From Thermoanaerobaculia bacterium (GTDB taxonomy: Bacteria; Acidobacteriota; Thermoanaerobaculia; Gp7-AA8): a stretch of 64,000 nucleotides of DNA. The notes below the pieces were generated by a model. The model saw only the letters and a list, made by a program, of their open reading frames with translations, was not told where the DNA came from and ran no database searches. Of the stretch, positions 7,003 to 24,613 are shown piece after piece; within the stretch, counting starts at the first letter, position 1; each line of letters starts with the position of its first letter. The stretch lies in NCBI GenBank assembly GCA_035276475.1, contig DATELQ010000052.1, positions 67 to 64,066 on the forward strand. Reading direction: 5' to 3'. The translations under genes and the position numbers were made by a program.

Positions 7003-9564
7003 GTGAAGAAGCTCCTGCTCTGGCTTGTCATCATTCTCATTCTCATCGTCGCCGGTCTGGCGATCTACTCCCGTTTCCGCAAGCTCTTCCCCGAGCCCAA
7101 CACGCAGAAAGACGAAGCGATGCTCGCCGGCCGCGACGCCAAGAGCATGCCGGGCGCGGACGAGGACTACTACCACGACATGGACTACGGCTTGACCAAC
7201 AACGCCGAGGCCGTGCGCGCGGCGGTCGATCCGTACATCCATGGCATCAGCGCCGCCGACGCCGTCAAAGCCGTCGCCATCGGCCGCAACAACTGGGTCG
7301 TCTGGACCGGCGGCAACGACCGCCTGTGGGACAAGCTCAACGCCTCGAGCGTCGGCAACCTCGACCTCCTGAAGACCATCTCCAACGCCGGCCCGTACAC
7401 GCGCGACAACCGCTGGACGTGGTACGGCCTCGTCAACGAGCCGTGCTACAAGAAAAACACCGCGCCGCGCGCCGACCGCTGGGGCCTCGTCCTCGATGTC
7501 TGGGACGACGCCAACCCCGACTGCAAGACTCACGATCCGTTCGAGAACGAGCAGAAGTACCCGGGCGTGAAGTACGGCGCGCGCGGCACCGGCAAGCTGG
7601 CCCTCGGCTCGTACTACGGCTACGGCACCGGCATCGTCGGACTGCGCCTCTTCCCGAACCCTGCCTTCGACGAGAAGGCGCAGGCGGCGTGGGACGCGAA
7701 GCGCTACTACGACGACCCGAGCTACTACAACCGCGCCGACCTCGTGAAGCCGTACCGCGTCGGCATGTCGTGCGGCTTCTGCCACGTCGGCCCAAACCCG
7801 TCGAATCCTCCGGCCGATCCGGAGAACCCGAAGTGGGAGAACCTCAACAGCAATCCGGGCGCGCAGTACTTCTGGATCTCGCGCATCTTCATGTCGGACT
7901 ACCACAACGTCCAGCAGAGCTTCGTCTGGCAGCTCTTCAACACCTCGCGTCCGGGCGCGCTCGACACCTCGCTCGTCTCCTCCGACGAGATCAACAACCC
8001 GCGCACCATGAACGCCATCTACAACCTGAAGGCGCGCGCGGAGATCGCCACGAAGTGGGGTGCCGAGAAGCTCGCCGGCGGTGGCCTCGACAACAAGCAG
8101 TTCAACGACTACGTCCCGCCGCTTTCGCAGCCCACGCTGCTCACGGCGATGTGGGACAAGGGGACGAACACCGGCCTCACCACGCACGTGCTCAAGGATG
8201 GCGCCGACTCGGTCGGAGCCCTGGGCGCGTTGAACCGCGTCTATCTCAACATCGGTCTCTTCAGCGAAGACTGGACGACGCACTTCATCCCGCTCATCGG
8301 CGGGCCGAAGACGAGCCCGATCGAGATCAAGTACTGCCGCGCCGCGTCGAACTACTGGAACGCGAACGAGCTGCAGACGCCCTACACCGGCCTATTCTTC
8401 ATGGTCACGGCGAAGCCCGACTACCTCGCCAAGGCGCCGGGCGGCTCGGCATTCATGGCCGACGCCGCGCTCGTCCCGCAGGGGAAAGTCGTCTTCGCCG
8501 AGCGCTGCGCGCGCTGCCACTCCAGCAAGCAGCCCGACAAAGTCTTCCAAACCTACTTCAAGGCGGGATGCATCGGCCCCGACTACCTGAAGTGCTGGAA
8601 CGACTACTGGAACTACACGAAAACGCCGGAGTACAAGGCGGCCATCACGGAGATCGTCAACAAGCCGGACTTCCTCGACGACAACTTCCTCTCCACCGAA
8701 GTGCGCGTACCGGTGACGCTCCTCGAGACCAACGCGTGCAGCCCGCTGGCCACCAACGCCATCCGCGGCGACATTTGGGACAACTTCTCCTCCGAGTCGT
8801 ACAAGAACCTCCCCGCCGTCGGCAACGTCACGGTGCACGATCCTTACACCTACCAGCCGAAGGAGTACGCGATGCCGGCGGGCGGCCGCGGCTACACGCG
8901 CCCGGCGTCGCTCATCAGCCTCTGGTCCACCGCGCCGTTCCTGCAGAACAACAGCGTCGGCCACTTCGAGCCGAGCGGCTCGGTCAAGGACCGCATGAGC
9001 TCCTTCGACGACGCCATCCACCAGATGCTCTGGCCGGAGACGCGACTGGCGAACCCGGCAGGGGCGATGTTCGTGACGAAGTCGGGGAAGATGGCGCCGG
9101 GCTGGATCGACACGACCACGGAGCAGAGCCGCCTCAACGTCCCACGCGGCTATCTGCCGCCGCAGCTCGTCGCGGTCGGCACTCCGTTCCGCGGTCTCCT
9201 CGAGAAGTTCTTCCCCAACACCTTCAACAAGGAGGGGCTGAGCATCGGGCCGATCCCGAAGGGAACACCCATCAACCTGCTGTCGAACCTCAACGTCGGG
9301 CCGGACGGCTTCGACGCCACCGTCCCCGTCGTGAAGAAGATGATCAAGGCCTTCAAGTCGCTGCCGCCGAATGCGACGGACGAGCAGGTGCGCGCGACCT
9401 TCAAGCCGCTCGTGCCCGATATGCTGAGCGTCAGCAAGTGCACCGACTTCGTCGTCAACCGCGGCCACTACTTCGGCACCGACTTCCTGCCGGGGAGCGA
9501 AGGTGAGCCGGGCCTGACCGACGATCAGAAGAAGGCGCTCATCGCGTTCCTGAAGACGTTCTGA
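7003..9564 (+). CDS. large di-heme c-type cytochrome (2x CxxCH), N-terminal TM anchor, paralog A
   Basis: GTG start at 7003 follows a GGAGG RBS at 6991-6995. The N-terminus is a TM helix (LLLWLVIILILIVAGLAIY). Heme-binding motifs are 'CGFCH' and 'CARCH', about 250 aa apart. The protein shares long identical blocks with the ORF at 12570..15080. Confidence 0.7.
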   Translation: MKKLLLWLVIILILIVAGLAIYSRFRKLFPEPNTQKDEAMLAGRDAKSMPGADEDYYHDMDYGLTNNAEAVRAAVDPYIHGISAADAVKAVAIGRNNWVVWTGGNDRLWDKLNASSVGNLDLLKTISNAGPYTRDNRWTWYGLVNEPCYKKNTAPRADRWGLVLDVWDDANPDCKTHDPFENEQKYPGVKYGARGTGKLALGSYYGYGTGIVGLRLFPNPAFDEKAQAAWDAKRYYDDPSYYNRADLVKPYRVGMSCGFCHVGPNPSNPPADPENPKWENLNSNPGAQYFWISRIFMSDYHNVQQSFVWQLFNTSRPGALDTSLVSSDEINNPRTMNAIYNLKARAEIATKWGAEKLAGGGLDNKQFNDYVPPLSQPTLLTAMWDKGTNTGLTTHVLKDGADSVGALGALNRVYLNIGLFSEDWTTHFIPLIGGPKTSPIEIKYCRAASNYWNANELQTPYTGLFFMVTAKPDYLAKAPGGSAFMADAALVPQGKVVFAERCARCHSSKQPDKVFQTYFKAGCIGPDYLKCWNDYWNYTKTPEYKAAITEIVNKPDFLDDNFLSTEVRVPVTLLETNACSPLATNAIRGDIWDNFSSESYKNLPAVGNVTVHDPYTYQPKEYAMPAGGRGYTRPASLISLWSTAPFLQNNSVGHFEPSGSVKDRMSSFDDAIHQMLWPETRLANPAGAMFVTKSGKMAPGWIDTTTEQSRLNVPRGYLPPQLVAVGTPFRGLLEKFFPNTFNKEGLSIGPIPKGTPINLLSNLNVGPDGFDATVPVVKKMIKAFKSLPPNATDEQVRATFKPLVPDMLSVSKCTDFVVNRGHYFGTDFLPGSEGEPGLTDDQKKALIAFLKTF

Positions 9565-9575
9565 GGAGGGATCGG

Positions 9576-11435
9576 TTGGAAGAGCGGTCGTACGAATACA
9601 TCGTCGTCGGATCGGGGGCGGGTGGCGGCACGGTCGCCGCCCGCCTCGCGGAGTACGGGCACACGGTGCTGCTGCTCGAAGCGGGCGGCGACCCGAAGAA
9701 GCTCTCCGGCGGCGACCCACCCTACCCGACCGAGAACCGTCTCCCCGACGACTACGACGTCCCCTGCTTCCACGCCTTCGCGTCAGAGAACGACGCCATG
9801 AAGTGGGACTTCTTCGTCCGGCATTACAAGGATGACGCGCTGCAGCGGAAGGACCTGAAGGTCGTGGAGACGCCCGAGGGCCCGCGCATTCTCTACCCGC
9901 GCGCCGGCACCCTCGGCGGCTGCACCGCGCACAACGCGCAGATCACCATCTACCCGCACAACAAAGACTGGGACGACATCGCCCAGCTCACCGGCGACCG
10001 CTCCTGGTCCGCCGGCAACATGCGCAAGTACTTCCAGCGCCTCGAGAACTGCCATCACCGCAAGATCTGGCGCTGGATCTACAACCTCACCCGCATCAAT
10101 CCGACGCGGCACGGCTTTCGCGGCTGGCTCAATACCGAAAAAGCCATTCCCGACGCGGCGGTCGAGGATGAAGACCTCGACAAGTTCCTCATCAAGTCGA
10201 TCGCCGCCTGCGAGAAGAACCTCAACTCCCCCTTCATCGAGCGCCTGAAGTGGTCGCTCCTCGGCAAGGGCGACGCGAACGACTGGCGCCTCGTGCAGGA
10301 GGACTCGACCGGCATCCGCTACATCCCGCTGGCGACGAACAACCACGCCCGCAACAGTCCGCGCGAGCGCGTGCTCGACGTGATGAAGCGGCATCCCGAC
10401 AAACTCTTCGTCGAGCTCGAGGCCCTCGCGGCGCGCGTCCTCTTCGACGACACGAACAAGGCCACCGGCGTGGAGTATCTGAAGGGCGCGCGTCTGTACC
10501 GCGCGTCAAAGGACCCGAACGGCGGCGGTGTGCCGATGAGAGTCACCGCCACGCGCGAAGTCATCCTCGCCGGCGGCGTCTACAACTCCCCGCAGCTCCT
10601 CATGCTCTCGGGCATCGGCCCGCGCGAGCACCTCGCGCACTTCGGCATCGCCTGCCGGCACGACCTCCCCGCCGTCGGCACGAACCTCCAGGACCGCTAC
10701 GAAGTCGGCGTCGTCAACCGCATGAGCTTCCCCGAGTGGTGGCTCCTCAAGGGCGCGAAGTTCCACGCCGGCGATCCGCAGTACAACGAGTGGAAGAACA
10801 AGCGCAACGGCGCCTACATCACCAACGGCGGCGTCGTCGCCGTCATCAAGAAGTCGTTCGACCAACGGCCGCTCCCCGACCTCTTCATCTTCGCCCTTCT
10901 CGGCAAGTTCTACGGCTACTTTCCCCAGTACTCGAAGCAGTTCCTCCCGCCGAACCTCAACTACCTCACCTGGTGCATCCTCAAGGCCCACACGCAGAAC
11001 TGCGCCGGCACGGTAGGGCTGAAGTCCCCCGACCCGCGCGACACGCCCGACATCGACTTCTGCTACTTCCAGGAGGGGACCGACAAGGGCGAGCAGGACC
11101 TCGCCTCCGTTGTGGAGGGCGTGAACTTCGTCCGCTCCGTCACCGCGCCGCTGCGCAAGAAGGGCCTCATCGCCGAGGAGGAGCTGCCGGGCGAGCACGT
11201 CAAGACCCAGGCCGAGATCGCCGACTTCGTCAAGTACAACGCCTGGGGCCATCACGCTTCGTGCACCTGTCCGATCGGCCAGGTCGTCGACAAAGACTTC
11301 CAGGTCTACGGCACGCGCGGGCTGCGCATCGTCGACGCATCGGTGTTCCCGAAGATCCCCGGGTTCTTCATCGTCAGTTCCGTCTACACCATCGGAGAGA
11401 AGGCCGCCGACGTCATTCACGAGGCTGCAAAATGA
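9576..11435 (+). CDS. GMC-family FAD-dependent oxidoreductase
   Basis: The N-terminus '[34 protein letters not shown]' is an FAD Rossmann motif of glucose-methanol-choline oxidoreductases. The length (619 aa) and the C-terminal '[11 protein letters not shown]' are typical of GMC enzymes. An RBS-like 'gaggaggg' precedes the start. Confidence 0.85.
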
Positions 11436-12457
11436 GCAATTACGGCATCGAAGGCGTTGTCGACGACGACCGCCGCTACGCCGGCACGCGCTACGCCGAG
11501 GTACGCGACGCGATGTTCGCGAACCCGTACTCGCGTCCCTACCCGATCGCGCCGCTCACGCTGTGGAGTTTGCTGCGCGGCATCCTGCCGTTCGGCCAAC
11601 CGTGGCACTTCCTCGCTGCCGCGCGCCGCACGGTCGCCTCGGAGGCCGAGCTCCGCTGGGGTCCGGACCGCAAAGGCTTTCGCCGCCTCCTCCACCCGAA
11701 CGGCATCTGCATGACCGGCGTGTGGGAGATCACCGAGGAGACGCCGTACAGCGGCTACTTCCGGAAAGGGAGCCGCGCCCTCGTCATGGCGCGCTACTCG
11801 ACGTCTGCGGAGACGCGGCGCGGCAACACGCGCTCCCTGGCGATGGTCGGCCGTGTCTACCCGACCACCGATCCGAACGATCCCCGCCCGCTGCGCAGCG
11901 CCAGCTTCATCACCCAGGAGGACATCGGCGGCGCCTACAGCCGGACGATCAACGAGGCCGTGCTGCGCAACGCCCCGAACGTCACCGCCTCGCGCCGCGG
12001 CTGGGGGGCGCCGGCGTTTGCCGTGACCGGACTCGTTCTCGGCATCGCTGACAAGAAGAACACCATCCGGCAGGTCTACGAGATCGCGGAGCTCGGGAAG
12101 CCCGACGGCGAGCCGACGCGCGCGCCGGAGTTCATGCAGCTCCTCGTCTCGCCCGACCAGCCGGTGATACCAGGCGAGACCCTCGACGTCCGCGACGAGA
12201 TCATGGCCCAGATCTACGAGACGGCGAAGCGGAGCCTGACCTTCCGCATCGAGACCTCGGATACCGGGGTCACGAAAGGACCCGGTTTCTACCAGCGACG
12301 CACGATCACCAACTGGCGGCAGATCGGAACCCTCACGTTCGACGCCGCCGTCGCCTCGTACAACGGCGACCACGTCTTCCACGCGAACCACCCGCCGTGG
12401 CGGCGCGACCGCAACGATCCCTCGACTGCACACCGGCGGCGGCTGTCCGACCGCTGA
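11432..12457 (+). CDS. catalase-related heme protein (mini-catalase / catalase-like peroxidase family)
   Basis: The ATG at 11432 overlaps the GMC stop (ATGA). 'RRLLHPNGICMTGVWEITEETPYSGYF...ALVMARYSTSAETRRGNTRSLA' parallels the catalase core, which runs R-x-x-H-x-x-G (distal His) ... RFSTV-G ... R-D-x-RGFA. Length is 341 aa. The ORF track only shows this frame as part of a spurious long ORF starting at 10250. Confidence 0.5.
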   Translation: MSNYGIEGVVDDDRRYAGTRYAEVRDAMFANPYSRPYPIAPLTLWSLLRGILPFGQPWHFLAAARRTVASEAELRWGPDRKGFRRLLHPNGICMTGVWEITEETPYSGYFRKGSRALVMARYSTSAETRRGNTRSLAMVGRVYPTTDPNDPRPLRSASFITQEDIGGAYSRTINEAVLRNAPNVTASRRGWGAPAFAVTGLVLGIADKKNTIRQVYEIAELGKPDGEPTRAPEFMQLLVSPDQPVIPGETLDVRDEIMAQIYETAKRSLTFRIETSDTGVTKGPGFYQRRTITNWRQIGTLTFDAAVASYNGDHVFHANHPPWRRDRNDPSTAHRRRLSDR

Positions 12458-12569
12458 AACGAATCGTTCTTTGGCGTCACTAAATCTCGTGAAGGGAGGG
12501 TAGGGAAATGCCGTTCCCGCGCCACTCCTATACTGAATTCCGTCTCAAATCGGTCGAAGGAGGGTCACC

Positions 12570-15080
12570 TTGAAGAAGCTCTACTCATGGATTGTCCTCA
12601 TCGCGGTCGTCATGGTCGGGCTCAGTTGCAAGCACGTCCCCGGTCAGCCGCGGCCGAACACGCAGCAGGACGAAGCGATGCGCGCCGGGCGCTCGCCGGA
12701 GAGCCTCAAAGGCTCCGACGACGACTACCTCGGCGACATGGACAACGGCCTGACCCGGGACCCCGAGGCCGCGCGCCGGGAGATGATCCCCTACCTCGGC
12801 CCGAACGTCACCGGCGCCGAGGCCGTGCGCCACATCGCCATCGGCCGGAACAACTGGATCGTCTGGACCGCCGGCAACGACGTCCTGTGGGACCGCCTGA
12901 ACCGCGACAGCAAGGGCGCCCTCGACCTCCTCAAGACGGTCTCGAACCTTCCGAACTACAACCGCAGCAACCGCTGGAACTGGTACGGCCTGGTCAACGA
13001 GCCGTGCTACAAGAAGAACACCGAGCCGCGCGCCGACCGCTGGGGCCTCCGCCTCGACGTCCGCGACCCGAACTGCGCCCCCGACCCGTTCGAGAACGAG
13101 GCGAAATACCCGGGCGTGAAGATCGGCGCGCGCGGCAAGGGGAAGGTCGAAGTCGGCTCCTACTACGGCTACGGCACCGGCATCATGGGGCTGCGGCTCT
13201 TCCCGAATCCCGACTTCGACGAGAAGGCGCAGGCGGCGTGGGACCCGAAGCGCTATTACGAAGATAAGGACTACTACAGCCGCGCCGACCTCATTAAGCC
13301 GTACCGCGTCGGCATGTCGTGCGGCTTCTGCCACGTCGGCCCGAACCCCTCGAACCCGCCGGCGGACCCGGAGAACCCGACCTTCGCGAACCTGAACGGC
13401 AACCCCGGCGCGCAGTACTTCTGGATCTCGCGCATCTTCATGTTCGATCAGGATAAGTCGAGCTTCGTCTGGCAGCTCTTCAACACCTCGCGTCCGGGCG
13501 CGCTCGACACGTCGCTCGTCTCCTCCGACGAGATCAACAACCCGCGCACCATGAACGCGGTCTACAACCTCCACGCGCGCCTGATGCTCGGGTACAAGTA
13601 CGGCGCGGAGAAGCTCGCCGCCGGCGGCAGCGCGAACAACAAGCAGCTCAACGACTACGCCCCGCCGCTGACGGACCTGGTCAAGTCCTTCTATGACCCG
13701 AAGACGACCACGGCGTACACCACGCACGTCCTCAAGGACGGCGCGGACTCGGTCGGCGCCTTGGGCGCGCTCAACCGCGTCTACCTCAACATCGGTCTCT
13801 TCAGCGAGGACTGGATGACGCACTTCATCCCGCTCGTCGGCGGGCCGATCACCAGTCCGATCGAGATCGCCTACTGCCGCAAGGCCTCGAATTACTGGAA
13901 CGCGAACGAGATGCAGACGCCCGACGTGGCCCTTTACTTCCTCGCCACAGCGAAGCCCGACTACCTCGCCAAGGCGCCGGGCCACGAGAAGTACCTCGCC
14001 GACGACTACCTCGTCCCCCGCGGCAAGGAAGTCTTCGCCGAGCGCTGCGCGCGCTGCCACTCCAGCAAATTGCCGGAGAAGGTCGCCACGAATTACATGA
14101 AGCCCGGCTGCATCGGCGCGAATTACCTGAAGTGCTGGGACGACTACTGGGCTTACACCAAGACCGCCGAGTTCAAGAACGAGATGAAGGAGATCGTCAG
14201 CCGGCCGGACTTCCTCGACGACAACTACCTCTCGACAGAGTTCCGCGTCCCGGTGACGCTCATGGAGACCAACGCCTGCAGCCCGCTGGCGACGAACGCC
14301 CTCGCCGGCGACATCTGGGACAACTTCTCCTCGCAGTCGTACAAGGAGCTCCCCGCGGTCGGCACGATCACCGTGCACGACCCGTACACCTACGAGCCGA
14401 AGCAGTACACGATGCCCGGCGGCGGCCGCGGCTACACGCGTCCGGCGTCGCTGATCAGCCTCTGGTCGACCGCGCCGTTCATGCAGAACAACAGCGTCGG
14501 TCCGTTCATGTGGACCGGCTCCGTCGCCGACCGTATGACGTCGTTCGACGAGTCGATCAACCAGATGCTCTGGCCGGAGCGGCGCAAGTCGAACCCGCCG
14601 GGGGCGATGTTCGTGACGAAGTCCGGGAAGATGGCGCCGGGGTGGATCGACACGACCACCGAGCCGAGCTACCTCCGCCTCACGCCGGGCTATCTGAAGG
14701 GCGGTGAGCGCCTTCTGCTCAAGACGTTCTCCGACTACTACGACGACACGAACGGCCTGGTTGTCGGCCCGATCCCGCAGGGAACGCCGATCAACCTCCT
14801 GGCAAACCTGAACGTCGACCCGCAGGGCTTCTCCGAGACGAAGTGGGTCGTGCTGAAAATGTTGAAGGCGCTGCCGAAGGGCGGACACCCGACCGAGGAT
14901 GAGATGCGCACTGCGTTCAAGCCGCTCGTCCCCGACATGCTCCGCGTCAGCAAGTGCACCGACTTCGTGGTCAACCGCGGCCACTACTTCGGCACCGACT
15001 TCCTCCCCTCCTCGGAAGGCGAGGCGGGGCTGAGCGACGCCGACAAGAACGCCCTTATCGCCTACCTCAAGCGCTTCTAG
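12570..15080 (+). CDS. large di-heme c-type cytochrome (2x CxxCH), paralog B
   Basis: TTG start at 12570 follows a 'gaaggaggg' RBS. An N-terminal TM helix is present and 'CGFCH' and 'CARCH' are conserved. Extensive identity to paralog A, for example 'YRVGMSCGFCHVGPNPSNPPADPENP' is identical in both. Confidence 0.7.
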   Translation: MKKLYSWIVLIAVVMVGLSCKHVPGQPRPNTQQDEAMRAGRSPESLKGSDDDYLGDMDNGLTRDPEAARREMIPYLGPNVTGAEAVRHIAIGRNNWIVWTAGNDVLWDRLNRDSKGALDLLKTVSNLPNYNRSNRWNWYGLVNEPCYKKNTEPRADRWGLRLDVRDPNCAPDPFENEAKYPGVKIGARGKGKVEVGSYYGYGTGIMGLRLFPNPDFDEKAQAAWDPKRYYEDKDYYSRADLIKPYRVGMSCGFCHVGPNPSNPPADPENPTFANLNGNPGAQYFWISRIFMFDQDKSSFVWQLFNTSRPGALDTSLVSSDEINNPRTMNAVYNLHARLMLGYKYGAEKLAAGGSANNKQLNDYAPPLTDLVKSFYDPKTTTAYTTHVLKDGADSVGALGALNRVYLNIGLFSEDWMTHFIPLVGGPITSPIEIAYCRKASNYWNANEMQTPDVALYFLATAKPDYLAKAPGHEKYLADDYLVPRGKEVFAERCARCHSSKLPEKVATNYMKPGCIGANYLKCWDDYWAYTKTAEFKNEMKEIVSRPDFLDDNYLSTEFRVPVTLMETNACSPLATNALAGDIWDNFSSQSYKELPAVGTITVHDPYTYEPKQYTMPGGGRGYTRPASLISLWSTAPFMQNNSVGPFMWTGSVADRMTSFDESINQMLWPERRKSNPPGAMFVTKSGKMAPGWIDTTTEPSYLRLTPGYLKGGERLLLKTFSDYYDDTNGLVVGPIPQGTPINLLANLNVDPQGFSETKWVVLKMLKALPKGGHPTEDEMRTAFKPLVPDMLRVSKCTDFVVNRGHYFGTDFLPSSEGEAGLSDADKNALIAYLKRF

Positions 15081-15089
15081 TTTCGCCGG

Positions 15090-15118
15090 CGGGTCGTGGG
15101 TCAGAACCCCACGACCCG
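15090..15118. terminator. bidirectional stem-loop between convergent cytochrome and hupE-like genes
   Basis: 'gggtcgtggg tcagaac cccacgaccc' is a 10-bp perfect stem at 15091-15100 / 15108-15117, placed right after the cytochrome stop and across the hupE-like stop. There is no clear U-tract. Confidence 0.4.
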
Positions 15119-16195
15119 CTGCAGCGTCCAGAACACTCCGGTCGCGGCAATCATCATCGAGGCCGGCACGACGAAGCGCGGACGGTACCAGTCGCGCTGC
15201 CGGAACCAAGCCGCCACCAGCAGATAGGCGGTGACGACGACGGCGAGCTGCGCGAGCTCGATGCCGACGTTGAAGCTGACGAGCGCCGGCACGAACTCGC
15301 CGCGCGGGAGCTGCAGCTCGCGCAGGACGCCGGCGAAGCCCATGCCGTGCAGCAGGCCGAAGGCGAAGACGACGGCGGGGCGCCACGGCTTGAGCTCCGT
15401 CGTGACGACGTTCTCGACGGCAACGTAGGCGATGGAGATGGCGATGAGCGGCTCGACGATGCGCGACGGCAGCGAGACGACGCCGTACATCGTCAGCCCA
15501 AGGGTGATGGAGTGCGCGATCGTGAACGCCGTGACCTGCGTGAGGATCGGCCGCAGCCGCGTGGTCAGAAGAAAAATGCCGAGGATGAAAAGGATGTGGT
15601 CGAGCCCCCGCGGGAGGATGTGCTGAAAGCCGAGGACGAGGTACTGCTGGATCACGTGCGCCCGCGTCGGCGGCGCCGTTCGGGCGAGCGGTAGGGGCGC
15701 ACAGCGTGCGCCCCCCTCGACCCAAATCGTCCTCTCATCGAGCGTCAGCGCATACGTCGCATACGTCAGCCCGTACTCAAAGGTGACCGTCCGCGCGTTC
15801 GCCGGCACCGCCCCCGTCGCGTTCAGCACGACAAACGCCGGCCGGCTGACATCGGACGGGACCTCCAGCGCCGCAATCGCGACGTGCGCCGGCGAGGCCA
15901 CGCCATCGAACCGCACGTCGATCTCCCGCCCCACCCCTGGCAACAGCGGCGTGAGCCTCGCCCGCAGCGCCGCCGCGTCGAGCGCGCCGCTGCGCGGCTG
16001 CCCGGCGGCCACTTCGAGCTTATTGAGGAGCGACAGCGGCGCCGTCGTGATCGTCGCCGTCCAGGTCTGCCCCACGGACAGCCGCACCTGCGTCGTCCCG
16101 ATCTCGTGCGCCTGCGCGGCGCCGGCGATCAGGAGCAGCAGCAGGAATCGCTTCACGCCAGATATACGGTGGCAACGGCGGAACTGGATTCGCAT
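15101..16195 (-). CDS. HupE/UreJ-family membrane protein (putative Ni/Co transporter-like) with extra N-terminal periplasmic domain
   Basis: The C-terminal half has multiple TM helices with His-containing HupE/UreJ_2-like motifs: 'LDHILFILGIFLL', 'FTIAHSITLGL', 'GLLHGMGFAGVL' and 'NVGIELAQL'. The start is uncertain. It is either Met 16195, only 14 bp from the divergent amine oxidase start, or GTG 16155 giving a VKRFLLLLL signal peptide. Confidence 0.6.
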   Translation of the reverse strand: MRIQFRRCHRISGVKRFLLLLLIAGAAQAHEIGTTQVRLSVGQTWTATITTAPLSLLNKLEVAAGQPRSGALDAAALRARLTPLLPGVGREIDVRFDGVASPAHVAIAALEVPSDVSRPAFVVLNATGAVPANARTVTFEYGLTYATYALTLDERTIWVEGGARCAPLPLARTAPPTRAHVIQQYLVLGFQHILPRGLDHILFILGIFLLTTRLRPILTQVTAFTIAHSITLGLTMYGVVSLPSRIVEPLIAISIAYVAVENVVTTELKPWRPAVVFAFGLLHGMGFAGVLRELQLPRGEFVPALVSFNVGIELAQLAVVVTAYLLVAAWFRQRDWYRPRFVVPASMMIAATGVFWTLQRVVGF

Positions 16196-16209
16196 TACAT
16201 TCGAGCCGT

Positions 16210-17454
16210 ATGCGCGACGCAATCGTCATCGGCGGCGGGGCCGCGGGGCTGGCCGCGACGCGCGATCTCTCCGCCGCCGGCCTCGACGTGCTCCTCCTCG
16301 AAGCCCGCAACCGCCTCGGCGGGCGCGTGCACACGCTGCACGAGGCCAATCTCCCGCTGCCGGTCGAGCTCGGGCCGGAGTTCGTGCACGGCGAGGTCGA
16401 GGAGGTCTTCCAACTCGTGCGCGGCAGCGGCGTGCTGATCGACCGCCTCCCCGACCTGCATCTGTGGAACGGCCGCGAGCGTCCCGACTTCTGGAAACGG
16501 ATCGAGCGCATCCTCGGCCGCGCTGCAAAGACGCCGCACGATGTCTCGCTCGCGGAGTTCCTCGCCAAATCGCGCATCAGCCCCTCGGATCGCAAGCTCG
16601 TCGAGATGTTCGTCGAGGGCTACCACGCCGCCGATCTCGAGAAGGTCAGCAGCCACTCCCTGGCGTCGAGCGACAGCGAGCAGCAGGACGAAAACGACTT
16701 CCCGCAGTTCCGCGTCGTCACCGGCTACGACTCGCTGCTGAACGTGATCCGCGGCGGCTTCGCGCAGGAGCACGTGGAAGTGCGGACGTCGTCGATCGTC
16801 ACGCGGATCGCCTGGCGGCGCGGCGAGGTCGAGGTAGGCGTCCGCACGCGCGCGGGCGCCGAGGAGACGCACCGCGCGCGGGCCGCCATCGTCACGCTGC
16901 CGATCGGCGTCCTGCGCTCCGACGCCATCACATGGGACCCGCGCCCGCGCAACCTCGCCGCGCTCGAGAAGCTGGAGATGGGGAACGTCTGCAAGATCGT
17001 CTTCGCCTTCCGCGAGTCGTTCTGGCCGGCGCAGACGAACTTCGTCCACGCCGCGGGGCCGGAGTTTCCGACGTGGTGGACGCACGCGCCCGCCGTCGTT
17101 CCGCTGATCACCGCCTGGACCGGCGGCCCACCCGCCGCGCGCCTTCTCGACATGAGCGAGGCGCAGCGCATCGACCGCGCCCTCGCCTCGCTGGCGAACG
17201 TGTTCGACGTGCCGCGCGCGCGGCTCGACGATCTCCTCGACAGCTGGTGGACGCACGACTGGCGCAACGACCCGCTCTCGCGCGGCGCGTACAGCTACAC
17301 GCTCGCCGGCGGCATGAGCGCGCGGAAGAAGCTCGCCGCGCCGGTGCAAAGCACGCTCTTCTTCGCCGGCGAAGCGTGCGAGGCGGAGCAGTCCGGCACC
17401 GTCGCCGGCGCCATCGCCTCGGGACGCGCCGCCGCAAAGGCCGTTCGGGCTTAG
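16210..17454 (+). CDS. flavin-containing amine oxidase family protein
   Basis: The N-terminal FAD motif 'IVIGGGAAGLAATRDL...LLLEARNRLGGRV' is present and the ORF has amine oxidase (MAO/PAO-like) architecture over 414 aa. Confidence 0.8.
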   Translation: MRDAIVIGGGAAGLAATRDLSAAGLDVLLLEARNRLGGRVHTLHEANLPLPVELGPEFVHGEVEEVFQLVRGSGVLIDRLPDLHLWNGRERPDFWKRIERILGRAAKTPHDVSLAEFLAKSRISPSDRKLVEMFVEGYHAADLEKVSSHSLASSDSEQQDENDFPQFRVVTGYDSLLNVIRGGFAQEHVEVRTSSIVTRIAWRRGEVEVGVRTRAGAEETHRARAAIVTLPIGVLRSDAITWDPRPRNLAALEKLEMGNVCKIVFAFRESFWPAQTNFVHAAGPEFPTWWTHAPAVVPLITAWTGGPPAARLLDMSEAQRIDRALASLANVFDVPRARLDDLLDSWWTHDWRNDPLSRGAYSYTLAGGMSARKKLAAPVQSTLFFAGEACEAEQSGTVAGAIASGRAAAKAVRA

Positions 17455-18890
17455 GGCAATCGAATCGACTGCCCGTGGTGGAACACGTTCCCCGGATCCC
17501 ACCGCTTCTTCACCCGCTGCAGGCGCGGATAGCTGTCGAGGTAGTACAACCGCGCCCAGTCGCGCAGATCGGTGTCCGGATAGTTGACGTAGCAGCCGTC
17601 CATCGTCGCGTTGGGCAGCGGGCCTTCGGGGCCGTACATGTCGTCGTAAAACGCCCGGATCCAGCGCAGGTTCTCGTCCTGCTCGAGCGGGTTGTTCCAG
17701 TACGTCTGGTACTGCAGCTTCATGATCGACGACCGCTGCGGCACCGCCGTCGCCTCCGAGTCGACCGCGTTGATCCGGCAGCCGTACGAGTCGACCTGCA
17801 GCAGCGCCTGCGGGACGTCGCTGTCGTTCGTGAGATGCGTCCACATCTTCGCGATCTGCGCGTCGGGAAACGGCTGCTTCATGTACGCCGACTTGTACTT
17901 CCCGTACTGATTCGGGCCGGAGGGATCGAACGTCTGCGTCGCATACAGCCACGGCATCGCCGTGACGTCGTTGTGCCGCATCGGGTGGAAGTGGCGGCCG
18001 ACGGGGACGACCTGCGGCACGAAGGGGCCGACGGCGTGGCGCATGCGCTCGACCAGCTCCTCGACCGGCCCGGCCCCGCTGCCGACGTTCTGGATCGTCA
18101 GCACGATCTGCGACGCCGACTTGTGCGTGAGGTGCAGCAGCGTGAAGAGTCCGGCGAACGGACTGCCGGGGGCGCTGTTCTCGCGCAGGAAGTCGCCGTA
18201 CGCCTGCACCAGCCGCGCGAACTTCCCGGGCGTCATCGCGCTCCAGTCCCAGGCCAGGTTCGCGACGTACGCCTCCGGCGGCGCGGGCGGAAGCTCGCGG
18301 AAAAAGAACCGCGTCACGATGCCGAAGTTGCCTCCGCCGCCGCCCTGATTGACCCAGAGGAGCTCGCGCTCGTCGCCGTGCGAGTCGGCCGTGACCGTCG
18401 CCGCGTGCGCGCGGCCGTCCGCGTCGACGACGACGATCTCGACGCCGGTCAGCCAGTCGACCGTGAGTCCGTGCAGCCGCGACAGCAGCCCGTATCCGCC
18501 GCCGGTGATGTGCCCGCCCGCACCGACGGAGTAGCACGACCCCGCCGGCAGCGCCACGTCGTACTCCTTGTACAGATTCCAGTAGACGTTCCAGAGCGTG
18601 CAGCCGGCTTCGATGCAGTACGCCCGCCGGGCGTCGTCGTAATAGACGCGGTTCATCGGCGCCGTGTCGACGATGACGCCGCCGTCGTTGCCGACCGCGA
18701 AGTCCTCGTAGCAATGTCCGCCGCTGCGCACCGTGATGCGGCGCTTCGCGTCGACGGCCTCCTGCACCGTTCTCTCGACCTGGCCGGTGTCGCCGCACAC
18801 CTGGATGAACGCCGGCTTGCCGGCCCAGCGGAGATTGAAGCCGCGGATCAGCGTCTGGTAGCGCGGGTCGTCGGGACCGACTTTGCTCAC
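17451..18890 (-). CDS. FAD-linked oxidase, berberine-bridge-enzyme-like (VAO/PCMH fold)
   Basis: The FAD_binding_4-like 'ITVRSGGHCYEDF' and 'GAGGHITGGGYG' motifs are present. The C-terminus has a BBE-like segment ending '...VFHHGQSI'. Confidence 0.8.
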   Translation of the reverse strand: MSKVGPDDPRYQTLIRGFNLRWAGKPAFIQVCGDTGQVERTVQEAVDAKRRITVRSGGHCYEDFAVGNDGGVIVDTAPMNRVYYDDARRAYCIEAGCTLWNVYWNLYKEYDVALPAGSCYSVGAGGHITGGGYGLLSRLHGLTVDWLTGVEIVVVDADGRAHAATVTADSHGDERELLWVNQGGGGGNFGIVTRFFFRELPPAPPEAYVANLAWDWSAMTPGKFARLVQAYGDFLRENSAPGSPFAGLFTLLHLTHKSASQIVLTIQNVGSGAGPVEELVERMRHAVGPFVPQVVPVGRHFHPMRHNDVTAMPWLYATQTFDPSGPNQYGKYKSAYMKQPFPDAQIAKMWTHLTNDSDVPQALLQVDSYGCRINAVDSEATAVPQRSSIMKLQYQTYWNNPLEQDENLRWIRAFYDDMYGPEGPLPNATMDGCYVNYPDTDLRDWARLYYLDSYPRLQRVKKRWDPGNVFHHGQSIRLP

Positions 18891-18947
18891 GGAAGAGGAG
18901 TAGCGGCAGCGCGGAGATCCCTACCCCCGCGGAGTACAATCGCGTCG

Positions 18948-19397
18948 ATGATCCCGAGACTCGCGCTGCTCCTTCTCTTCGTCGCCGGCTCCGCGGTCGC
19001 GCAGGAATTCGGCCGCGCCGACGGCGGCGACCTCCAGCTCCAGGTCAAGCAGCCGGGCGGCTTCTCCGGCTCCCTCGGACTCTCCTTCTCGAACGGCCCC
19101 TTCGGGTCGAAGCAATTCGGCGGCACCCTCGGCGGCGCGCTCATCGCGGACAAGCTCTGGTTCTTCGCCACGGGAGAGCGCAATCGTCAGTACGCCTCCG
19201 TCACCCCGCAGCTCAATGACCGCCAGGTTCTCACCGCGGCCGCCGGCACCGGACGGGAGCAGACGCCCACGCTCACGTTGCCGTCGTCATTCCTCTCGAT
19301 GCGCTACACCGGCATGCTCTCGAGCAGCTCGTACTTCACCGCGAACGTGACGACGCGAAGAACGACCGCCGAGCCGGCGCTCGTCCTCTTCCACTAG
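18948..19397 (+). CDS. hypothetical secreted protein (150 aa)
   Basis: The in-frame ATG has a signal-peptide-like N-terminus (MIPRLALLLLFVAGSAVAQE). It is only visible as the tail of a spurious 1204-aa ORF in the track. No domain is recognised. Confidence 0.35.
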   Translation: MIPRLALLLLFVAGSAVAQEFGRADGGDLQLQVKQPGGFSGSLGLSFSNGPFGSKQFGGTLGGALIADKLWFFATGERNRQYASVTPQLNDRQVLTAAAGTGREQTPTLTLPSSFLSMRYTGMLSSSSYFTANVTTRRTTAEPALVLFH

Positions 19398-20026
19398 AAG
19401 CCGTACTTCGCCTTATCCCGCCCGATCCGCTTCAGCGCCACGATCGCCGGGACGAAGTCGCGCGTCTCGCCGGGGAGCTTCTGCCAGATCCGGTAGTAGT
19501 CGCGGTCGTGCCCCGTCTCCCGCCCGAACGTCTCCTTCATGATCCGCGCGACGCGGTTCTCGCCCGAGTTGTACGCCGCCGCGGCCAGGTACCAGCAGCC
19601 GAAGCGCTTGTAGAGGTGCTCGAGAAAGTCGAGCGCCGCCTCCGTCTCCTTCTCCAGGTTCTTCCGCTCGTCGACCTTCTTGTTCACGCGCAGGCCGTAC
19701 AGATGCGCCGTCGCCTTCGTCAGCTGCCACACCCCGACCGCTTCCTCGGCAGAGTGTGCCTCGCGGTCGAACGCCGACTCCTCGAAGGCCAGATAGATGA
19801 GGTTCTGCGGCAGGCCGCGCGCCCGCAGCTTGCTCGTGATCAGCTTCTGGACGTGCGGCTTCCGCTCGAAGCCGGCCGCGATCCTCTTGCGGTACTCCGG
19901 CGTATGGCTGAACTGGTCGACCCAGTAGTCGACCCGCTCGTGCTTGAGGTCGGGCAGCACATCGCGCTGGCCGGCCATTGCGGCGGCGGCGGCGAAAAAG
20001 ACGGCGAAAGCGGCAAAATGGCGCAT
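19394..20026 (-). CDS. lytic transglycosylase (SLT domain) protein
   Basis: The SLT catalytic signature 'EESAFDREAHSAEEAVGVWQLTKATA' matches E-S-x-F ... S-x-x-G-A-x-G-x-x-Q. The start is taken at Met 'MRHFAAFAVFFAAAAAMA', a signal peptide. Confidence 0.7.
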   Translation of the reverse strand: MRHFAAFAVFFAAAAAMAGQRDVLPDLKHERVDYWVDQFSHTPEYRKRIAAGFERKPHVQKLITSKLRARGLPQNLIYLAFEESAFDREAHSAEEAVGVWQLTKATAHLYGLRVNKKVDERKNLEKETEAALDFLEHLYKRFGCWYLAAAAYNSGENRVARIMKETFGRETGHDRDYYRIWQKLPGETRDFVPAIVALKRIGRDKAKYGF

Positions 20027-20109
20027 CGAAGTTACCGTTCGTGCAAAGCCATTGCCGCGGCCGGCGGACCGTGAATATTTTCTTGGTGGAGGGCTGTTCC
20101 CCTCGCGAC

Positions 20110-22164
20110 ATGAAGAGATTCGCACTCCTCCTCTCGCTGCTCACTCTCCTTTCCACCGCCGGGTTGCGCGCCGCTGACGCGCCGTCGGCGACGCAGACCG
20201 CGCAGCGCTACGGCAAATGGGGCGTCGATCTCGACGCCATGGACCGCAGCGTCAAGCCCGGCGACGACTTTTTCCGCTTCGTCAACGGCAAGTGGGCTTC
20301 CACCGCCCAGATCCCGGCCGACAAGACGAGCCTCGGATCGTTCGCGCTCCTCCGCGACCTCTCCGAGGCGCGCGTGCACGAGATCCTGGAGCGCTGGGCC
20401 GCCGCCAAGAACCTCAAGCCCGGCAGTGACGAGGCCAAGGTCGCCGCGATCTACCGCTCGTTCATGGACGAGGCGACGATCGAGAAGTTCGACAGCAAGC
20501 CCATCCAGCCGTTTCTCGACGCCGTTGCGAAAGCCAAAACCCTCGACGACGTCGCCCGCCTGATGGCCGACTCGCAGGGCGGCTTCGGCAGCTCGTTCTT
20601 CCGCGCCGGCATCGGCGACGACCAGAAGAACCCCGACAAGAACACGCTTTATCTCTCGCAGGCCGGCTTGGGCCTCCCCGACCGCGAGTACTACCTGCAG
20701 GACAAGTTCAAGGAGCAGCGCGAGCACTACCAGCAGTACGTCAGCGACATGCTGAAGCTGGCCGGCTGGCCCGAGCCGGAGAAGAACGCCGCCGACGTCG
20801 TGGCGCTCGAGACCAAGATCGCCGAGGCGCATTGGACGCGCGCCGAAGGGCGCAACCGGGACAAGACGTACAACCTCATGACCTTCGCCGAGCTGGAGAA
20901 GAACGCCGCCGGCTTCCCCTGGAGCGTCTACTTCAAGGAAGCGGGCCTGGAGAAGGCCGGCCGCGCCGTCGTCCGCCAGAACACGGCGTTCCCGAAGATC
21001 GCCAACGTCTTCGCCGCCACGCCCGTCGACACGCTGAAGGCGTGGGAGGCGTTCCACATCGTCGACGAGACCTCGCCGCTGCTCTCGAAGCGCTTCGCCG
21101 ACGCGCAGTGGGAGTTCCGCTCGAAGTACCTCAATGGCACGAAGGAACAGCGCCCCCGCTGGAAGCGCGGCACGCAGGCCGCCGAGATCTCCATGGGCGA
21201 GGCGATCGGCCGCACGTACGTGGCCGAGTACTTCCCGCCGGAGTCGAAGGCGAAGATGGAGTCGCTCGTCAGCGATCTCCGCACGGCGCTCCGTGCCCGC
21301 ATCGAGAAGCTGGAGTGGATGAAGCCGGAGACGAAGGCGAAGGCGCTGGAGAAGCTGGCCAAGTTCAACGTGAAGATCGGCTATCCGACGAAGTGGCGCG
21401 ACTATTCGGCGCTGCAGGTGAAAGACGGTGACGCCGTCGGCAACGTCCTCAGCTCCGCGAAGTTCCAGTGGGCCCGCGACCTGGCCGATCTCAACAAGCC
21501 GACCGACAAGACCGAGTGGGGCATGACGCCGCAGACGGTCAACGCCTACTACAACTCGACGAAGAACGAGATCGTCTTCCCCGCCGCGATTCTGCAGCCG
21601 CCCTTCTTCGATCCGAAGGCCGACCCGGCCGTGAACTACGGTGCGATCGGCGGCGTGATCGGACACGAGATCACGCACGGCTTCGACGATCAGGGCCGCA
21701 AGTCCGACGGCAACGGCGTGCTCACCGACTGGTGGGTCGCCGACGACGCCGCGAAGTTCGAGGCGCAGGCGACGAAGCTCGGCGCGCAGTACGAGGCGGT
21801 GAATTTCCCGACGCTGCCCGGCATGCACATCACCGGACGCCTGACGATGGGCGAGAACATCGCGGACCTCGGCGGGATCCTGCTCGCGCTCGACGCCTAC
21901 AAGGTGTCGCTCAAGGGCCAGCCTGCCCCGGTGCTGGACGGCTTCACCGGCCAGCAGCGCGTGTTCCTCGGCTGGGCCCAGGTGTGGCGCTCCGTGATGC
22001 GCGACGACACCCTCCGCCAGCTCCTCATGACCGACTCCCACTCCCCCGCCCCCGTCCGCGCCATCGCCCCGCTCCGCAACGTGGACGCGTGGTACGACGC
22101 GTTCGGCGTGAAGGAGGGAGAGGCGAATTACGTGAAGCCGGAAGAGCGAGTCAGAATCTGGTAA
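20110..22164 (+). CDS. pepO: M13-family zinc metallopeptidase (neprilysin/PepO-like)
   Basis: The ORF carries the HExxH zinc-binding 'VIGHEITHGFDDQGR', the third zinc-ligand motif 'ENIADLGG' and the N-terminal lipoprotein-like signal 'MKRFALLLSLLTLLSTAG'. Length is about 684 aa. Confidence 0.85.
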   Translation: MKRFALLLSLLTLLSTAGLRAADAPSATQTAQRYGKWGVDLDAMDRSVKPGDDFFRFVNGKWASTAQIPADKTSLGSFALLRDLSEARVHEILERWAAAKNLKPGSDEAKVAAIYRSFMDEATIEKFDSKPIQPFLDAVAKAKTLDDVARLMADSQGGFGSSFFRAGIGDDQKNPDKNTLYLSQAGLGLPDREYYLQDKFKEQREHYQQYVSDMLKLAGWPEPEKNAADVVALETKIAEAHWTRAEGRNRDKTYNLMTFAELEKNAAGFPWSVYFKEAGLEKAGRAVVRQNTAFPKIANVFAATPVDTLKAWEAFHIVDETSPLLSKRFADAQWEFRSKYLNGTKEQRPRWKRGTQAAEISMGEAIGRTYVAEYFPPESKAKMESLVSDLRTALRARIEKLEWMKPETKAKALEKLAKFNVKIGYPTKWRDYSALQVKDGDAVGNVLSSAKFQWARDLADLNKPTDKTEWGMTPQTVNAYYNSTKNEIVFPAAILQPPFFDPKADPAVNYGAIGGVIGHEITHGFDDQGRKSDGNGVLTDWWVADDAAKFEAQATKLGAQYEAVNFPTLPGMHITGRLTMGENIADLGGILLALDAYKVSLKGQPAPVLDGFTGQQRVFLGWAQVWRSVMRDDTLRQLLMTDSHSPAPVRAIAPLRNVDAWYDAFGVKEGEANYVKPEERVRIW

Positions 22165-23236: not shown

Positions 23237-24613
23237 GTGGACTGGTTCGACGGCCTCTGGCTCGTCCGCCTCCTCTTCCTCCGCGGCCTCGCGGCGATCT
23301 ACCTCGTCGCCTTCCTCTCCGCGCTGAACCAATTCCCCGCGCTCCTCGGCGAGCGCGGGCTCCTCCCGGTGCGCGACTTCCTCGACGTTGTCACGTTCCG
23401 CGACGCGCCGTCGCTCTTCCACTGGCGGTACTCGGACCGGCTCCTCCGCGCCGTCGCACGGAGCGGTATCGCGCTCGCGGCCATCTCGCTCATCGGCGTC
23501 ACCGACAAAGCTCCGTGGCCGCTCTTCCTCGCCATCTGGCTCGCGATGTGGGCGCTCTACCTCTCCATCGTCAACGTCGGCCAGACCTTCTACGCCTTCG
23601 GATGGGAGTCGATGCTCTGCGAGGCCGGCTTCTTCGCCGCATTCCTCGGGCCCGCACACCTGCGGACGCCCGCCATCGTCATCGTCCTCCTCCGCTGGAT
23701 GCTCTTCCGCGTCGAGCTCGGCGCGGGCCTCATCAAGCTCCGCCACGACCAATGCTGGCGCGATCTCACCTGCCTCTATTACCACTACGAGACCCAGCCG
23801 CTCCCGAACCCGCTGAGTCGCCTCTTCCACCGCGTACCGAAGCCGCTGCACCGCTGGAGCGTCGCCTTCAGCCACTTCGTGCAGATCGTCGCGCCGTTCG
23901 GCCTCTTCGCGCCGCAGCCGATCGCGTCGATCGCCGCGGCGCTGGCCATCGCGCAGCAGCTCCTCCTGATCGTCAGCGGCAACTACGCCTGGCTGAACTG
24001 GCTGACCGTCATCCTCGGCGTGACCGGCTTCAGCGACGCGATCCTTTACGTGCGTACACCCGCGACCGCGCCGCGTCCGATGGCCTTCGACGTCATCCTC
24101 TACGCGCTCGCCGCGCTCACCGCGATCCTGAGCATCCGCCCCGCGCTCAACTTTTTCTCGCGCAACCAATACATGAACTACTGCTGGAACCGATTCCACC
24201 TTGTCTGCGCGTACGGCGCGTTCGGCAGCATCACCAAGGAGCGCTTCGAGGTCGTGCTCGAAGGAAGCAACGAGGGCGTGGAGTGGAAGGAGTACGGCTT
24301 CCGCGCCAAGCCGGGCGACACCGCGCGGCGGCCGCCGCAGGTCGCGCCGTACCACCTCCGCCTCGACTGGCTGATGTGGTTCCTCCCCTTCTCCGTGCAC
24401 GCGCCGGGCTACGAGCGCTGGTTCATCCGCCTCGTGCAGCGGCTCCTCAAGGGCGACGCGCAAACGCTCGCGCTCCTGCGCCACAACCCCTTCCCCGATG
24501 CGCCGCCGAAGTACATCCGCGCCGGCTACTACCTCTATCGCTTCGGCGAGAAGGAGTGGTGGACGCGCGAGCGCATCGGCGACTACCTGCCGATCATGGC
24601 GCGCTCTGTGTAA
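23237..24613 (+). CDS. lipase maturation factor (LMF1-like) family membrane protein
   Basis: It has multiple TM segments plus the LMF-family conserved blocks 'YHYETQPLPNPLS' and 'GNYAWLNWLTV'. Length is 458 aa. Confidence 0.65.
   Translation: MDWFDGLWLVRLLFLRGLAAIYLVAFLSALNQFPALLGERGLLPVRDFLDVVTFRDAPSLFHWRYSDRLLRAVARSGIALAAISLIGVTDKAPWPLFLAIWLAMWALYLSIVNVGQTFYAFGWESMLCEAGFFAAFLGPAHLRTPAIVIVLLRWMLFRVELGAGLIKLRHDQCWRDLTCLYYHYETQPLPNPLSRLFHRVPKPLHRWSVAFSHFVQIVAPFGLFAPQPIASIAAALAIAQQLLLIVSGNYAWLNWLTVILGVTGFSDAILYVRTPATAPRPMAFDVILYALAALTAILSIRPALNFFSRNQYMNYCWNRFHLVCAYGAFGSITKERFEVVLEGSNEGVEWKEYGFRAKPGDTARRPPQVAPYHLRLDWLMWFLPFSVHAPGYERWFIRLVQRLLKGDAQTLALLRHNPFPDAPPKYIRAGYYLYRFGEKEWWTRERIGDYLPIMARSV

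Follow-up and report, generated by a model that had tools for sequence, protein, structure and literature searches.

A conserved gene pair for a RoxA-like di-haem cytochrome c and a GMC-family flavoprotein at a Thermoanaerobaculia locus

In RoxA-like di-haem enzymes an N-terminal five-coordinate haem binds O2 and attacks C=C bonds of lipophilic substrates (polyisoprene for RoxA and RoxB, oleate for PA2077 and PA2078), and the bis-His C-terminal haem is non-catalytic (PMC6311187, PMC4496055). The distal ligand of the C-terminal haem in RoxA is H641 (PMC6311187). PA2077 and PA2078 (FadCcp) of P. aeruginosa are RoxA-like periplasmic di-haem proteins that act as oleate 10S-dioxygenase and 7,10-diol synthase (PMC4496055). 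Few enzymes of this kind have an assigned reaction, which is rubber cleavage, oleate dioxygenation or diol synthesis. Here we analyse a stretch of 64,000 nucleotides (nt) from a Thermoanaerobaculia bacterium (contig DATELQ010000052.1, positions 67 to 64,066), further referred to as the window. In it, two paralogous genes for large di-haem c-type cytochromes, cyt1 and cyt2, flank the genes for a GMC-family flavin adenine dinucleotide (FAD) oxidoreductase and for a 341-amino-acid (aa) protein with a catalase fold. The cytochromes appear to be divergent relatives of RoxA, and a cytochrome gene followed by a GMC gene recurs in several phyla.

The cytochromes and their relationship to RoxA-like enzymes

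The four genes (Table 1) are co-directional, and the open reading frame (ORF) listing and translation reproduced their coordinates and content as given in a first-pass annotation, which a model had made from the sequence alone. The gap between cyt1 and the GMC gene is 11 nt, the start of the 341-aa gene at 11432 overlaps the GMC stop by 4 nt (ATGA), an overlap already noted in that annotation, and 112 nt separate the 341-aa gene from cyt2. Each paralogue has exactly two CxxCH motifs, CGFCH and CARCH, spaced by 245 aa in cyt1 and by 242 aa in cyt2, in agreement with the earlier description of two di-haem proteins of about 850 aa. Both motifs are invariant in an alignment of 23 sequences, and exactly two are present in all 92 long cytochrome ORFs (>650 aa) of the loci fetched for comparison, including paralogues with identity of 26–39%. 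Judged from these sequences, such constancy is far beyond chance. Columns conserved at 95% or above in orthologues of different phyla number 267, and 103 of those hold in the paralogues too; the latter are at least 98% conserved across all 92 sequences and include both CxxCH motifs and a C-terminal His (H822 in cyt1).

The family comprises more than 6,600 clusters at 90% identity; at 50% identity there are 2,648 clusters with E ≤ 1e-3 and 863 with E ≤ 1e-30. It is larger than the characterised RoxA-like groups, its members are labelled only as hypothetical proteins or, generically, as cytochrome c, and almost all of them are without a Pfam domain. Relatives are found in at least 586 GTDB species genomes. 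The hosts include Thermoanaerobaculia and other Acidobacteriota, Methylococcaceae, Methylocystis and Methylosinus, Nitrosospira, Nitrosovibrio and Nitrosomonas, as well as Pseudomonas, Marinobacterium, Gilvimarinus, Haliea, Thiorhodococcus, an Oscillatoria and Methylomirabilales, and identity across phyla is 54–60%.

Neither Pfam nor NCBIfam assigned the cytochromes to a family; Pfam gave only sub-threshold cytochrome c matches at the second CxxCH. The Pfam models PSCyt1, PSCyt2 and PSCyt3 did not match them at E ≤ 0.01, nor did the Pfam model CCP_MauG, whose reference type is a protein of about 35–45 kDa with a His/Met-ligated electron-transfer haem. The NCBIfam models RoxA, RoxB and RoxC did not match cyt1, and RoxB and RoxC were only weakly contacted by distant paralogues (18–29 bits against cut-offs of 900–1000). 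Direct and profile searches of PDB with cyt1, A1 and the 341-aa family gave nothing significant, only the haem-2 CxxCH stretch being similar to small cytochromes c, and a Foldseek search against PDB gave no match either. There is no entry for the cytochrome family in Pfam, NCBIfam or PDB. The cytochromes thus match no named family, and, as the first-pass annotation held, they are not the tri-haem subunits of known GMC-type dehydrogenases.

The best profile match of cyt1 was to NF040606, "di-heme cytochrome c peroxidase", which unites uncharacterised RoxA relatives (E 2.5e-9, 37 bits against a cut-off of 150). NF040606-type proteins encoded near some of the studied loci match RoxA (PDB 4b2n) at 5e-30. 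A shallow profile of the cytochromes (Neff 1.9) gave 24 columns only, so that a deeper one was needed. With a profile of 82 sequences (Neff 4.3), hhalign matched the family to the NF040606-type neighbours with probability 98.5% and E 2.4e-15. The default alignment covered 24 columns at haem 2, and a permissive, non-realigned setting gave a longer one, spanning cyt1 residues 487–853 and containing the haem-2 CxxCH, PASLISLWSTAPFLQNNSV against PLDGIWLRAPYLHNGSV, NRGH-FGT and the C-terminal KKALIAFLKTF. A second co-linear match spans the haem-1 site (probability 70%). The N-terminal 250 residues of cyt1 and its large insertions are without counterpart in NF040606. RoxA residues 500–524 (the MauG motif) and 639–662 align with the profile of the paralogues. 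The invariant His of the family falls on H641 of RoxA (GH of the paralogue profile on G640–H641) and on NxGH of the NF040606 proteins, and from this placement we infer that His822 of cyt1 is the distal ligand of haem 2.

RoxA and RoxB (PDB 4b2n; NF050033, NF050034) are likewise large extracytoplasmic proteins with two CxxCH haems, and their haem-2 region, the W-x-x-AP-(Y/F)-L-x-N-x-SV motif and the C-terminal GH...LIxxLKT are co-linear with those of the family. Unlike them, the window cytochromes are about 200 residues longer, and the family is near-constantly paired with a GMC gene, has Leu or Gln in place of the MauG-motif His and appears to be membrane-anchored or lipoprotein rather than secreted. 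Between the two haems the sequences gave no reliable alignment, so that no counterparts of RoxA F317 and W302, which lie near the catalytic haem, were placed. Since the profile links hold while the MauG-motif His fails, we file the cytochrome as a putative new divergent subfamily of the RoxA-like branch in the bacterial cytochrome c peroxidase/MauG superfamily, and not as RoxA, RoxB or MauG. The family probably shares the chemistry of this known superfamily. The RoxA/MauG-type relationship raised in the first-pass annotation thus points the right way, towards the RoxA-like branch. Given the extent of conservation and the RoxA-like architecture, we regard it as quite probable that the cytochrome works as a RoxA-like di-haem enzyme and not as an electron carrier.

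PA2077 and PA2078, compared here by their published description, are tandem paralogues like cyt1 and cyt2 (in one operon there), with a CxxCH spacing of 245, as in cyt1, and a distal His near the C-terminus; they differ in having 624–634 aa, in keeping PYFHNGSVP and in being without a GMC partner (PMC4496055). They are 43% identical to each other and catalyse different steps, whereas cyt1 and cyt2 share 70% of their residues in an end-to-end alignment (78.5% identity of DNA over 2,477 bp). Neighbour joining of 92 family members placed cyt1 and cyt2 in sister clades, each with its own orthologue from L003. This Thermoanaerobaculia metagenome-assembled genome is the nearest public relative, and its cytochromes are 92% and 89% identical to those of the window. 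Because each copy groups with its own L003 orthologue, the duplication is lineage-specific but predates the split of the window organism from L003. It had earlier been called recent on account of long identical blocks; the identity values and the presence of both copies in L003 contradict this, and the blocks are no sign of recent origin because they are the most conserved motifs of the family. Both paralogues look functional, since of the 267 positions with conservation of 95% or above among the other orthologues cyt1 keeps 261 and cyt2 257. The N-terminal transmembrane anchor once assigned to each copy is retained for cyt1, where residues 2–28 form a helix in the structure model, and not for cyt2, where a short, signal-like N-terminus ends in ...VGLSC, which might be a lipobox of atypical form. 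Lipoboxes of the canonical form are found in several proteobacterial orthologues.

In both the window and L003, both cytochrome genes are preceded by the consensus TA(T/C)TGAATTCCGTC about 25 nt before the start, and then by GAAGGAGG. This leader was duplicated along with the cytochrome gene and could be a shared operator or leader element.

A subfamily of distant paralogues (about 690–840 aa, 26–39% identical) keeps the MauG-motif His, and its genes often lie beside the main copy or beside a GMC gene of their own. CxxCH-less ORFs of about 400–500 aa that clustered with the cytochromes were rejected as unrelated; they are probably TPR-like and had been joined by chaining.

The GMC partner and the catalase-fold protein

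The locus survey comprised 82 fetched loci and the window, that is, 83 loci with 85 cytochrome genes. For 64 of these 85 genes the next gene downstream encodes GMC, after a median gap of 22 nt; for 12 others a GMC gene lies elsewhere within 8 kb, and for four it is absent although the flanks are complete. The loci with the pair span Acidobacteriota, Proteobacteria, a cyanobacterium and Methylomirabilales, and at L055 a distant cytochrome paralogue is accompanied by a GMC gene of its own. Because the pair is syntenic across phyla, we reject the view that the two genes adjoin by chance or without a functional reason. The conserved unit is therefore the pair of a cytochrome gene followed by a GMC gene, not the quartet: the full four-gene layout with the second cytochrome was found in the window and L003 only. 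In L003 the order of the four genes is the same, and genes for an aldo-keto reductase and HupE occupy matching flank positions. The four-gene synteny assumed in the first-pass annotation did not hold beyond these two genomes. Its wording of an undescribed oxidative system stands in that literature searches (on the pairing with GMC, on DUF4331 and on RoxA-like/FadCcp relatives) yielded no account of the cytochrome family or of its pairing with GMC, and has to be narrowed from four genes to two. The near-constant pairing with one GMC subfamily offers a concrete target for two-enzyme biochemistry, and cultured hosts include Pseudomonas morbosilactucae, Marinobacterium rhizophilum, Methylosinus, Nitrosovibrio and Thiorhodococcus drewsii.

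The GMC assignment of the flavoprotein was confirmed, as both GMC_oxred_N (70.7 bits) and GMC_oxred_C (83.4 bits) of Pfam scored above the cut-off. The protein contains GSGAGGG (GxGxxG), and its HH559-560 is invariant among orthologues. Within the GMC family it is divergent; of the proteins in PDB, a chloramphenicol-inactivating oxidoreductase, choline oxidases, alcohol oxidases and a fatty-acid photodecarboxylase come closest to it. The motif GGCTAHNA is near-invariant in the orthologues, and in alignments it matches GGCSSHNA in choline oxidase and GGCSTHN in pyranose dehydrogenase. In these two enzymes the His of the motif carries the 8-alpha-histidyl covalent link to flavin. By this motif, FAD is probably bound covalently in the partner GMC as well.

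In the window and in most loci the GMC protein begins 10–16 residues before GxGxxG and is without an export signal. In about nine loci (L018, L025, L029, L034, L037, L038, L049, L053 and L061) the GMC protein, 48–52% identical, has a twin-arginine (TAT) signal and a lipobox. Judging by these N-termini, one orthologous pair seems to be present in two topologies.

The 341-aa protein has the catalase beta-barrel core fold, a relationship at the fold level only. The best structural matches were coral allene oxide synthase (1u5u) and the mycobacterial mini-catalase MAP-2744c of M. avium (3e4w). Unlike these, it has no match to catalase models at the sequence level, nor any Pfam match. In its family His88 (RRLLH motif) and His320 are conserved at 100% and His317 at 97%, whereas the candidate proximal-ligand Tyr310, placed by motif comparison and not by structural superposition, is Tyr in 52% and Phe in 36% of members. 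The catalase-like part of the earlier reading thus holds for the fold, and haem binding would be putative, given the 52% conservation of the candidate Tyr.

The gene is accessory to the cytochrome–GMC pair, occurring in 8 of the 83 loci, mostly in Thermoanaerobaculia. In three further long contigs, chosen via the 341-aa protein, it lies within 8 kb of an unannotated gene for 828–849 aa followed by a GMC gene, which we take to be the same pair. At L085 (9648–10004), L086 (6167–6523) and L087 (9696–10004), in other Acidobacteriota, a small start-overlapped ORF of 102–118 aa precedes the catalase-fold gene. The window has no such ORF, and its GMC stop and 341-aa start overlap directly. The catalase-fold gene of L083/L084 (3448–12746) is part of a molybdenum hydroxylase cluster (Fer2, MoCoBD, XdhC and MobA-like); upstream of it are a large gene that is cut by the locus start, a GMC gene and a gene for a multihaem cytochrome. 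The cluster hints at oxidation of an aldehyde or an N-heterocycle.

Proposed pathway and alternatives

We propose that the cytochrome, tethered to the membrane on the periplasmic side, is a di-haem oxygenase or peroxidase that acts in one pathway with a GMC enzyme, the latter probably with covalently bound FAD. Our confidence in this reading as a whole is slightly less than even; for the narrower claim that the two proteins act in one pathway, the balance is modestly favourable. At its core is the conserved pair of genes, to which this Thermoanaerobaculia lineage has added the second cytochrome and the catalase-fold gene. The cytochrome would face the periplasm. By analogy with RoxA and PA2077/PA2078, its N-terminal haem, with His261 as the proximal ligand, would be the catalytic site that binds O2 or peroxide, and its C-terminal haem would be ligated by His506 and His822 and non-catalytic. 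Its substrate, oxygenated or peroxidised on the outer side of the membrane, would be lipophilic, with an unsaturated lipid or an isoprenoid as the most likely candidate. The GMC enzyme, presumably co-transcribed and, in this genome, located in the cytoplasm, would then act on that metabolite too, by oxidation of an alcohol or aldehyde-hydrate group. The catalase-fold protein, also cytoplasmic, could remove the H2O2 derived from the GMC reaction or convert an organic hydroperoxide, as mini-catalases of the allene oxide synthase type do.

An unsaturated lipid is proposed because lipases recur near the pair. Patatin-like phospholipases are encoded in 21 of the 83 loci, where their gene often follows that of GMC directly; other neighbours are a class-3 lipase and a Tle1-like lipase, and the window has the lipase maturation factor LMF1. 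The similarity of the catalase-fold protein to allene oxide synthase and the action of PA2077 and PA2078 on a fatty acid fit this picture. We consider a lipid or isoprenoid substrate a doubtful guess; were it correct, the pair would represent a new oxidative lipid pathway in environmentally important bacteria. Rather unlikely, in our estimate, is the broader picture of the family as a widespread branch of RoxA-type dioxygenases with an obligate flavoprotein partner. Such a branch would cleave or oxygenate unsaturated membrane lipids or isoprenoids in an oxylipin- or apocarotenoid-like route in methanotrophs, nitrifiers, pseudomonads, cyanobacteria and soil Acidobacteriota, and cyt1 and cyt2 would catalyse successive steps, like PA2077 and PA2078.

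Several observations weigh against the proposed pathway. The MauG-motif His, present in all known RoxA and RoxB proteins and in PA2077/PA2078, is replaced in the orthologues by Leu (63), Gln (16), Val (5) or Ile (1); the motif (PY(F/L)H-NGSVP in RoxA) is recognisable in the family as APFLQNNSV, and its His is kept only in seven distant paralogues. In GMC alcohol oxidases the first catalytic residue is followed, about 40 positions further on, by a second one, His or Asn. In the partner GMC, Phe-Phe is near-invariant (71 orthologues) at the position where 8b7s has the Asn of its GN motif, which we take to be the second catalytic residue. Lipases accompany the pair in only about one quarter of the loci, and other neighbours point elsewhere: DUF4331 in 26 of the 83 loci, HupE/UreJ_2 in 12, DUF4198, and a DyP-like four-gene set in 13. 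Finally, the cytochrome and the GMC protein are apparently in different compartments in most genomes, yet about nine loci encode a TAT-lipoprotein GMC, and no single model easily explains both cases. The compartments are also a difficulty for the earlier idea of extracytoplasmic cytochromes fed by the GMC enzyme, as the GMC and catalase-fold proteins of the window are without an export signal, like most of their orthologues.

The main rival explanation is a dehydrogenase–cytochrome complex, in which the GMC protein oxidises a substrate and the di-haem cytochrome is its dedicated electron acceptor, as in FAD-dependent fructose, glucose and sorbitol dehydrogenases or flavocytochromes. If this were the case, the pair would be a new type of flavoprotein–cytochrome couple. 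The membrane-bound FAD dehydrogenase complexes consist of the catalytic subunit together with a tri-haem cytochrome and a small TAT-signal hitchhiker subunit. The cytochrome of the window, on the other hand, is di-haem and unrelated to these acceptor subunits, and no small TAT-bearing ORF that could serve as a hitchhiker was seen among the ORFs of the window operon. In the Burkholderia FAD-dependent glucose dehydrogenase and the Gluconobacter fructose dehydrogenase, the gene of the GMC subunit adjoins that of a c-type cytochrome, like in the window pair, and the catalytic subunit is without its own signal (PMC6719666). The tight, translationally close arrangement of the pair across phyla suits a complex, and in the loci with a TAT signal and lipobox the GMC protein would be placed in the periplasm beside the cytochrome. 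However, most GMC proteins, including that of the window, are without an export signal, which argues against a simple complex of this kind, and a length of about 850 aa, 267 highly conserved columns and a RoxA-like active-site architecture exceed the needs of a carrier. We therefore consider the dehydrogenase complex unlikely.

A peroxide-coupled system is distinctly improbable. In it, the GMC oxidase would supply H2O2 to a di-haem peroxidase or to MauG/BthA/MbnH-like oxidation of a protein or cofactor, and the catalase-fold protein would shield the cytoplasm. The homology of the cytochrome is to the RoxA-like branch and not to CCP_MauG, no conserved candidate gene for a protein substrate lies beside the pair, and the catalase-fold gene is missing from most loci. 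Besides, cytoplasmic production of H2O2 for a periplasmic enzyme would be unusual.

The pair might also help to take up a metal or metallophore or to change its redox state, with HupE/UreJ, DUF4198 and DUF4331 proteins as partners. Such a role would suit the recurrence of HupE_UreJ_2 and DUF4331 genes, their grouping beside the pair at one locus (L085), and hosts among methanotrophs and nitrifiers, which depend on copper enzymes, but is very unlikely, as these neighbours are missing from most loci, neither the cytochrome nor the GMC protein has a metal-binding signature, and DUF4331 is without known function and unmentioned in the literature found. A defence-island reading was rejected because PADLOC matched none of the cytochrome, GMC, catalase-fold, patatin-like, CHAT and DUF4331 proteins to a defence system.

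Neighbouring genes in the window and in other loci

The features of the window and the distant paralogues of other loci are listed in Table 1. The HupE/UreJ, amine oxidase and BBE oxidase genes are present as previously described. Their grouping with the four genes into an oxidoreductase island, in contrast, is not sustained as a unit: the BBE oxidase was found in no fetched locus (L003 ends before the corresponding position). The HupE-like gene recurs in L003 and L009, the aldo-keto reductase in L003, and L085 also has an amine oxidase. An ORF of 1,204 aa at 15783–19397 on the plus strand with a weak OMP match was rejected as an Arg/Pro-rich, high-GC shadow ORF over the amine oxidase and BBE genes. 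Further neighbours in the window are SLT and MFS genes. The homologue of lipase maturation factor found downstream belongs to a family, LMF1, known mainly from eukaryotes.

Table 1. Features of the window and distant cytochrome paralogues in other loci (the latter in coordinates of the respective locus)
Feature	Position	Strand	Remarks
TPR-CHAT protein, upstream	2143-5193	-	1,016 aa; without PADLOC match
Aldo-keto reductase	5419-6225	-	
cyt1 leader	6962-6995	+	motif TATTGAATTCCGTC at 6962-6975; ribosome-binding site GAAGGAGG at 6988-6995
cyt1, di-haem c-type cytochrome	7003-9564	+	853 aa; GTG start; longest ORF begins at 6964
cyt1 CGFCH, residues 257-261	7771-7785	+	haem motif
cyt1 CARCH, residues 502-506	8506-8520	+	haem motif
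cyt1 His822	9466-9468	+	invariant; aligned with RoxA H641
GMC-family FAD oxidoreductase	9576-11435	+	619 aa; without signal peptide
GMC His119	9930-9932	+	within GGCTAHNA motif
341-aa catalase-fold protein	11432-12457	+	without signal peptide; His88 and His320 invariant
cyt2 leader	12529-12562	+	TATACTGAATTCCGTC, then GAAGGAGG; motif at 12531-12544
cyt2, cyt1 paralogue	12570-15080	+	836 aa
cyt2 haem motif, residues 251-255	13320-13334	+	
cyt2 haem motif, residues 493-497	14046-14060	+	
cyt2 His805	14982-14984	+	
HupE/UreJ_2 membrane protein	15101-16222	-	
Amine oxidase	16210-17454	+	
BBE-type FAD oxidase	17451-18890	-	
M13 peptidase, downstream	19978-22164	+	
Lipase maturation factor homologue, downstream	23237-24613	+	LMF1 + LMF1_C
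Distant paralogue, L009	2442-4523		
Distant paralogue, L055	5504-7639		
Distant paralogues, L069/L076/L077	~10500-12700		
Distant paralogue, L004	14149-16581		
Distant paralogue, L049	15748-18276		

In other loci, NF040606/RoxA-like cytochromes neighbour the pair in nine cases. Examples of DUF4331 genes are found at L085 (within 11169–17655, where HupE_UreJ_2, DUF4198 and DUF4331 are grouped), L001 (14483–15613), L042 (14773–15732) and L052 (6615–7769). Several DUF4331 proteins start with SDHADP after the signal peptide. The 376-aa gene after the GMC gene at L001 was considered as a homologue of the 341-aa protein and rejected, being DUF4331.

The DyP-like set comprises a DyP-type peroxidase-like protein of about 510–650 aa and proteins of about 404, 434 and 146 aa without a family; it was found at L025 (2627–7162) and in 12 other loci (beta-proteobacteria, Acidobacteriaceae and Geminicoccaceae). 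At L002 a further haem oxidase, a 946-aa protein of the animal haem peroxidase family, followed by DUF4331 and a TPR protein, is encoded on the minus strand (687–5212) a few kb upstream of the pair, and a gene for 1,469 aa lies between this group and the pair.

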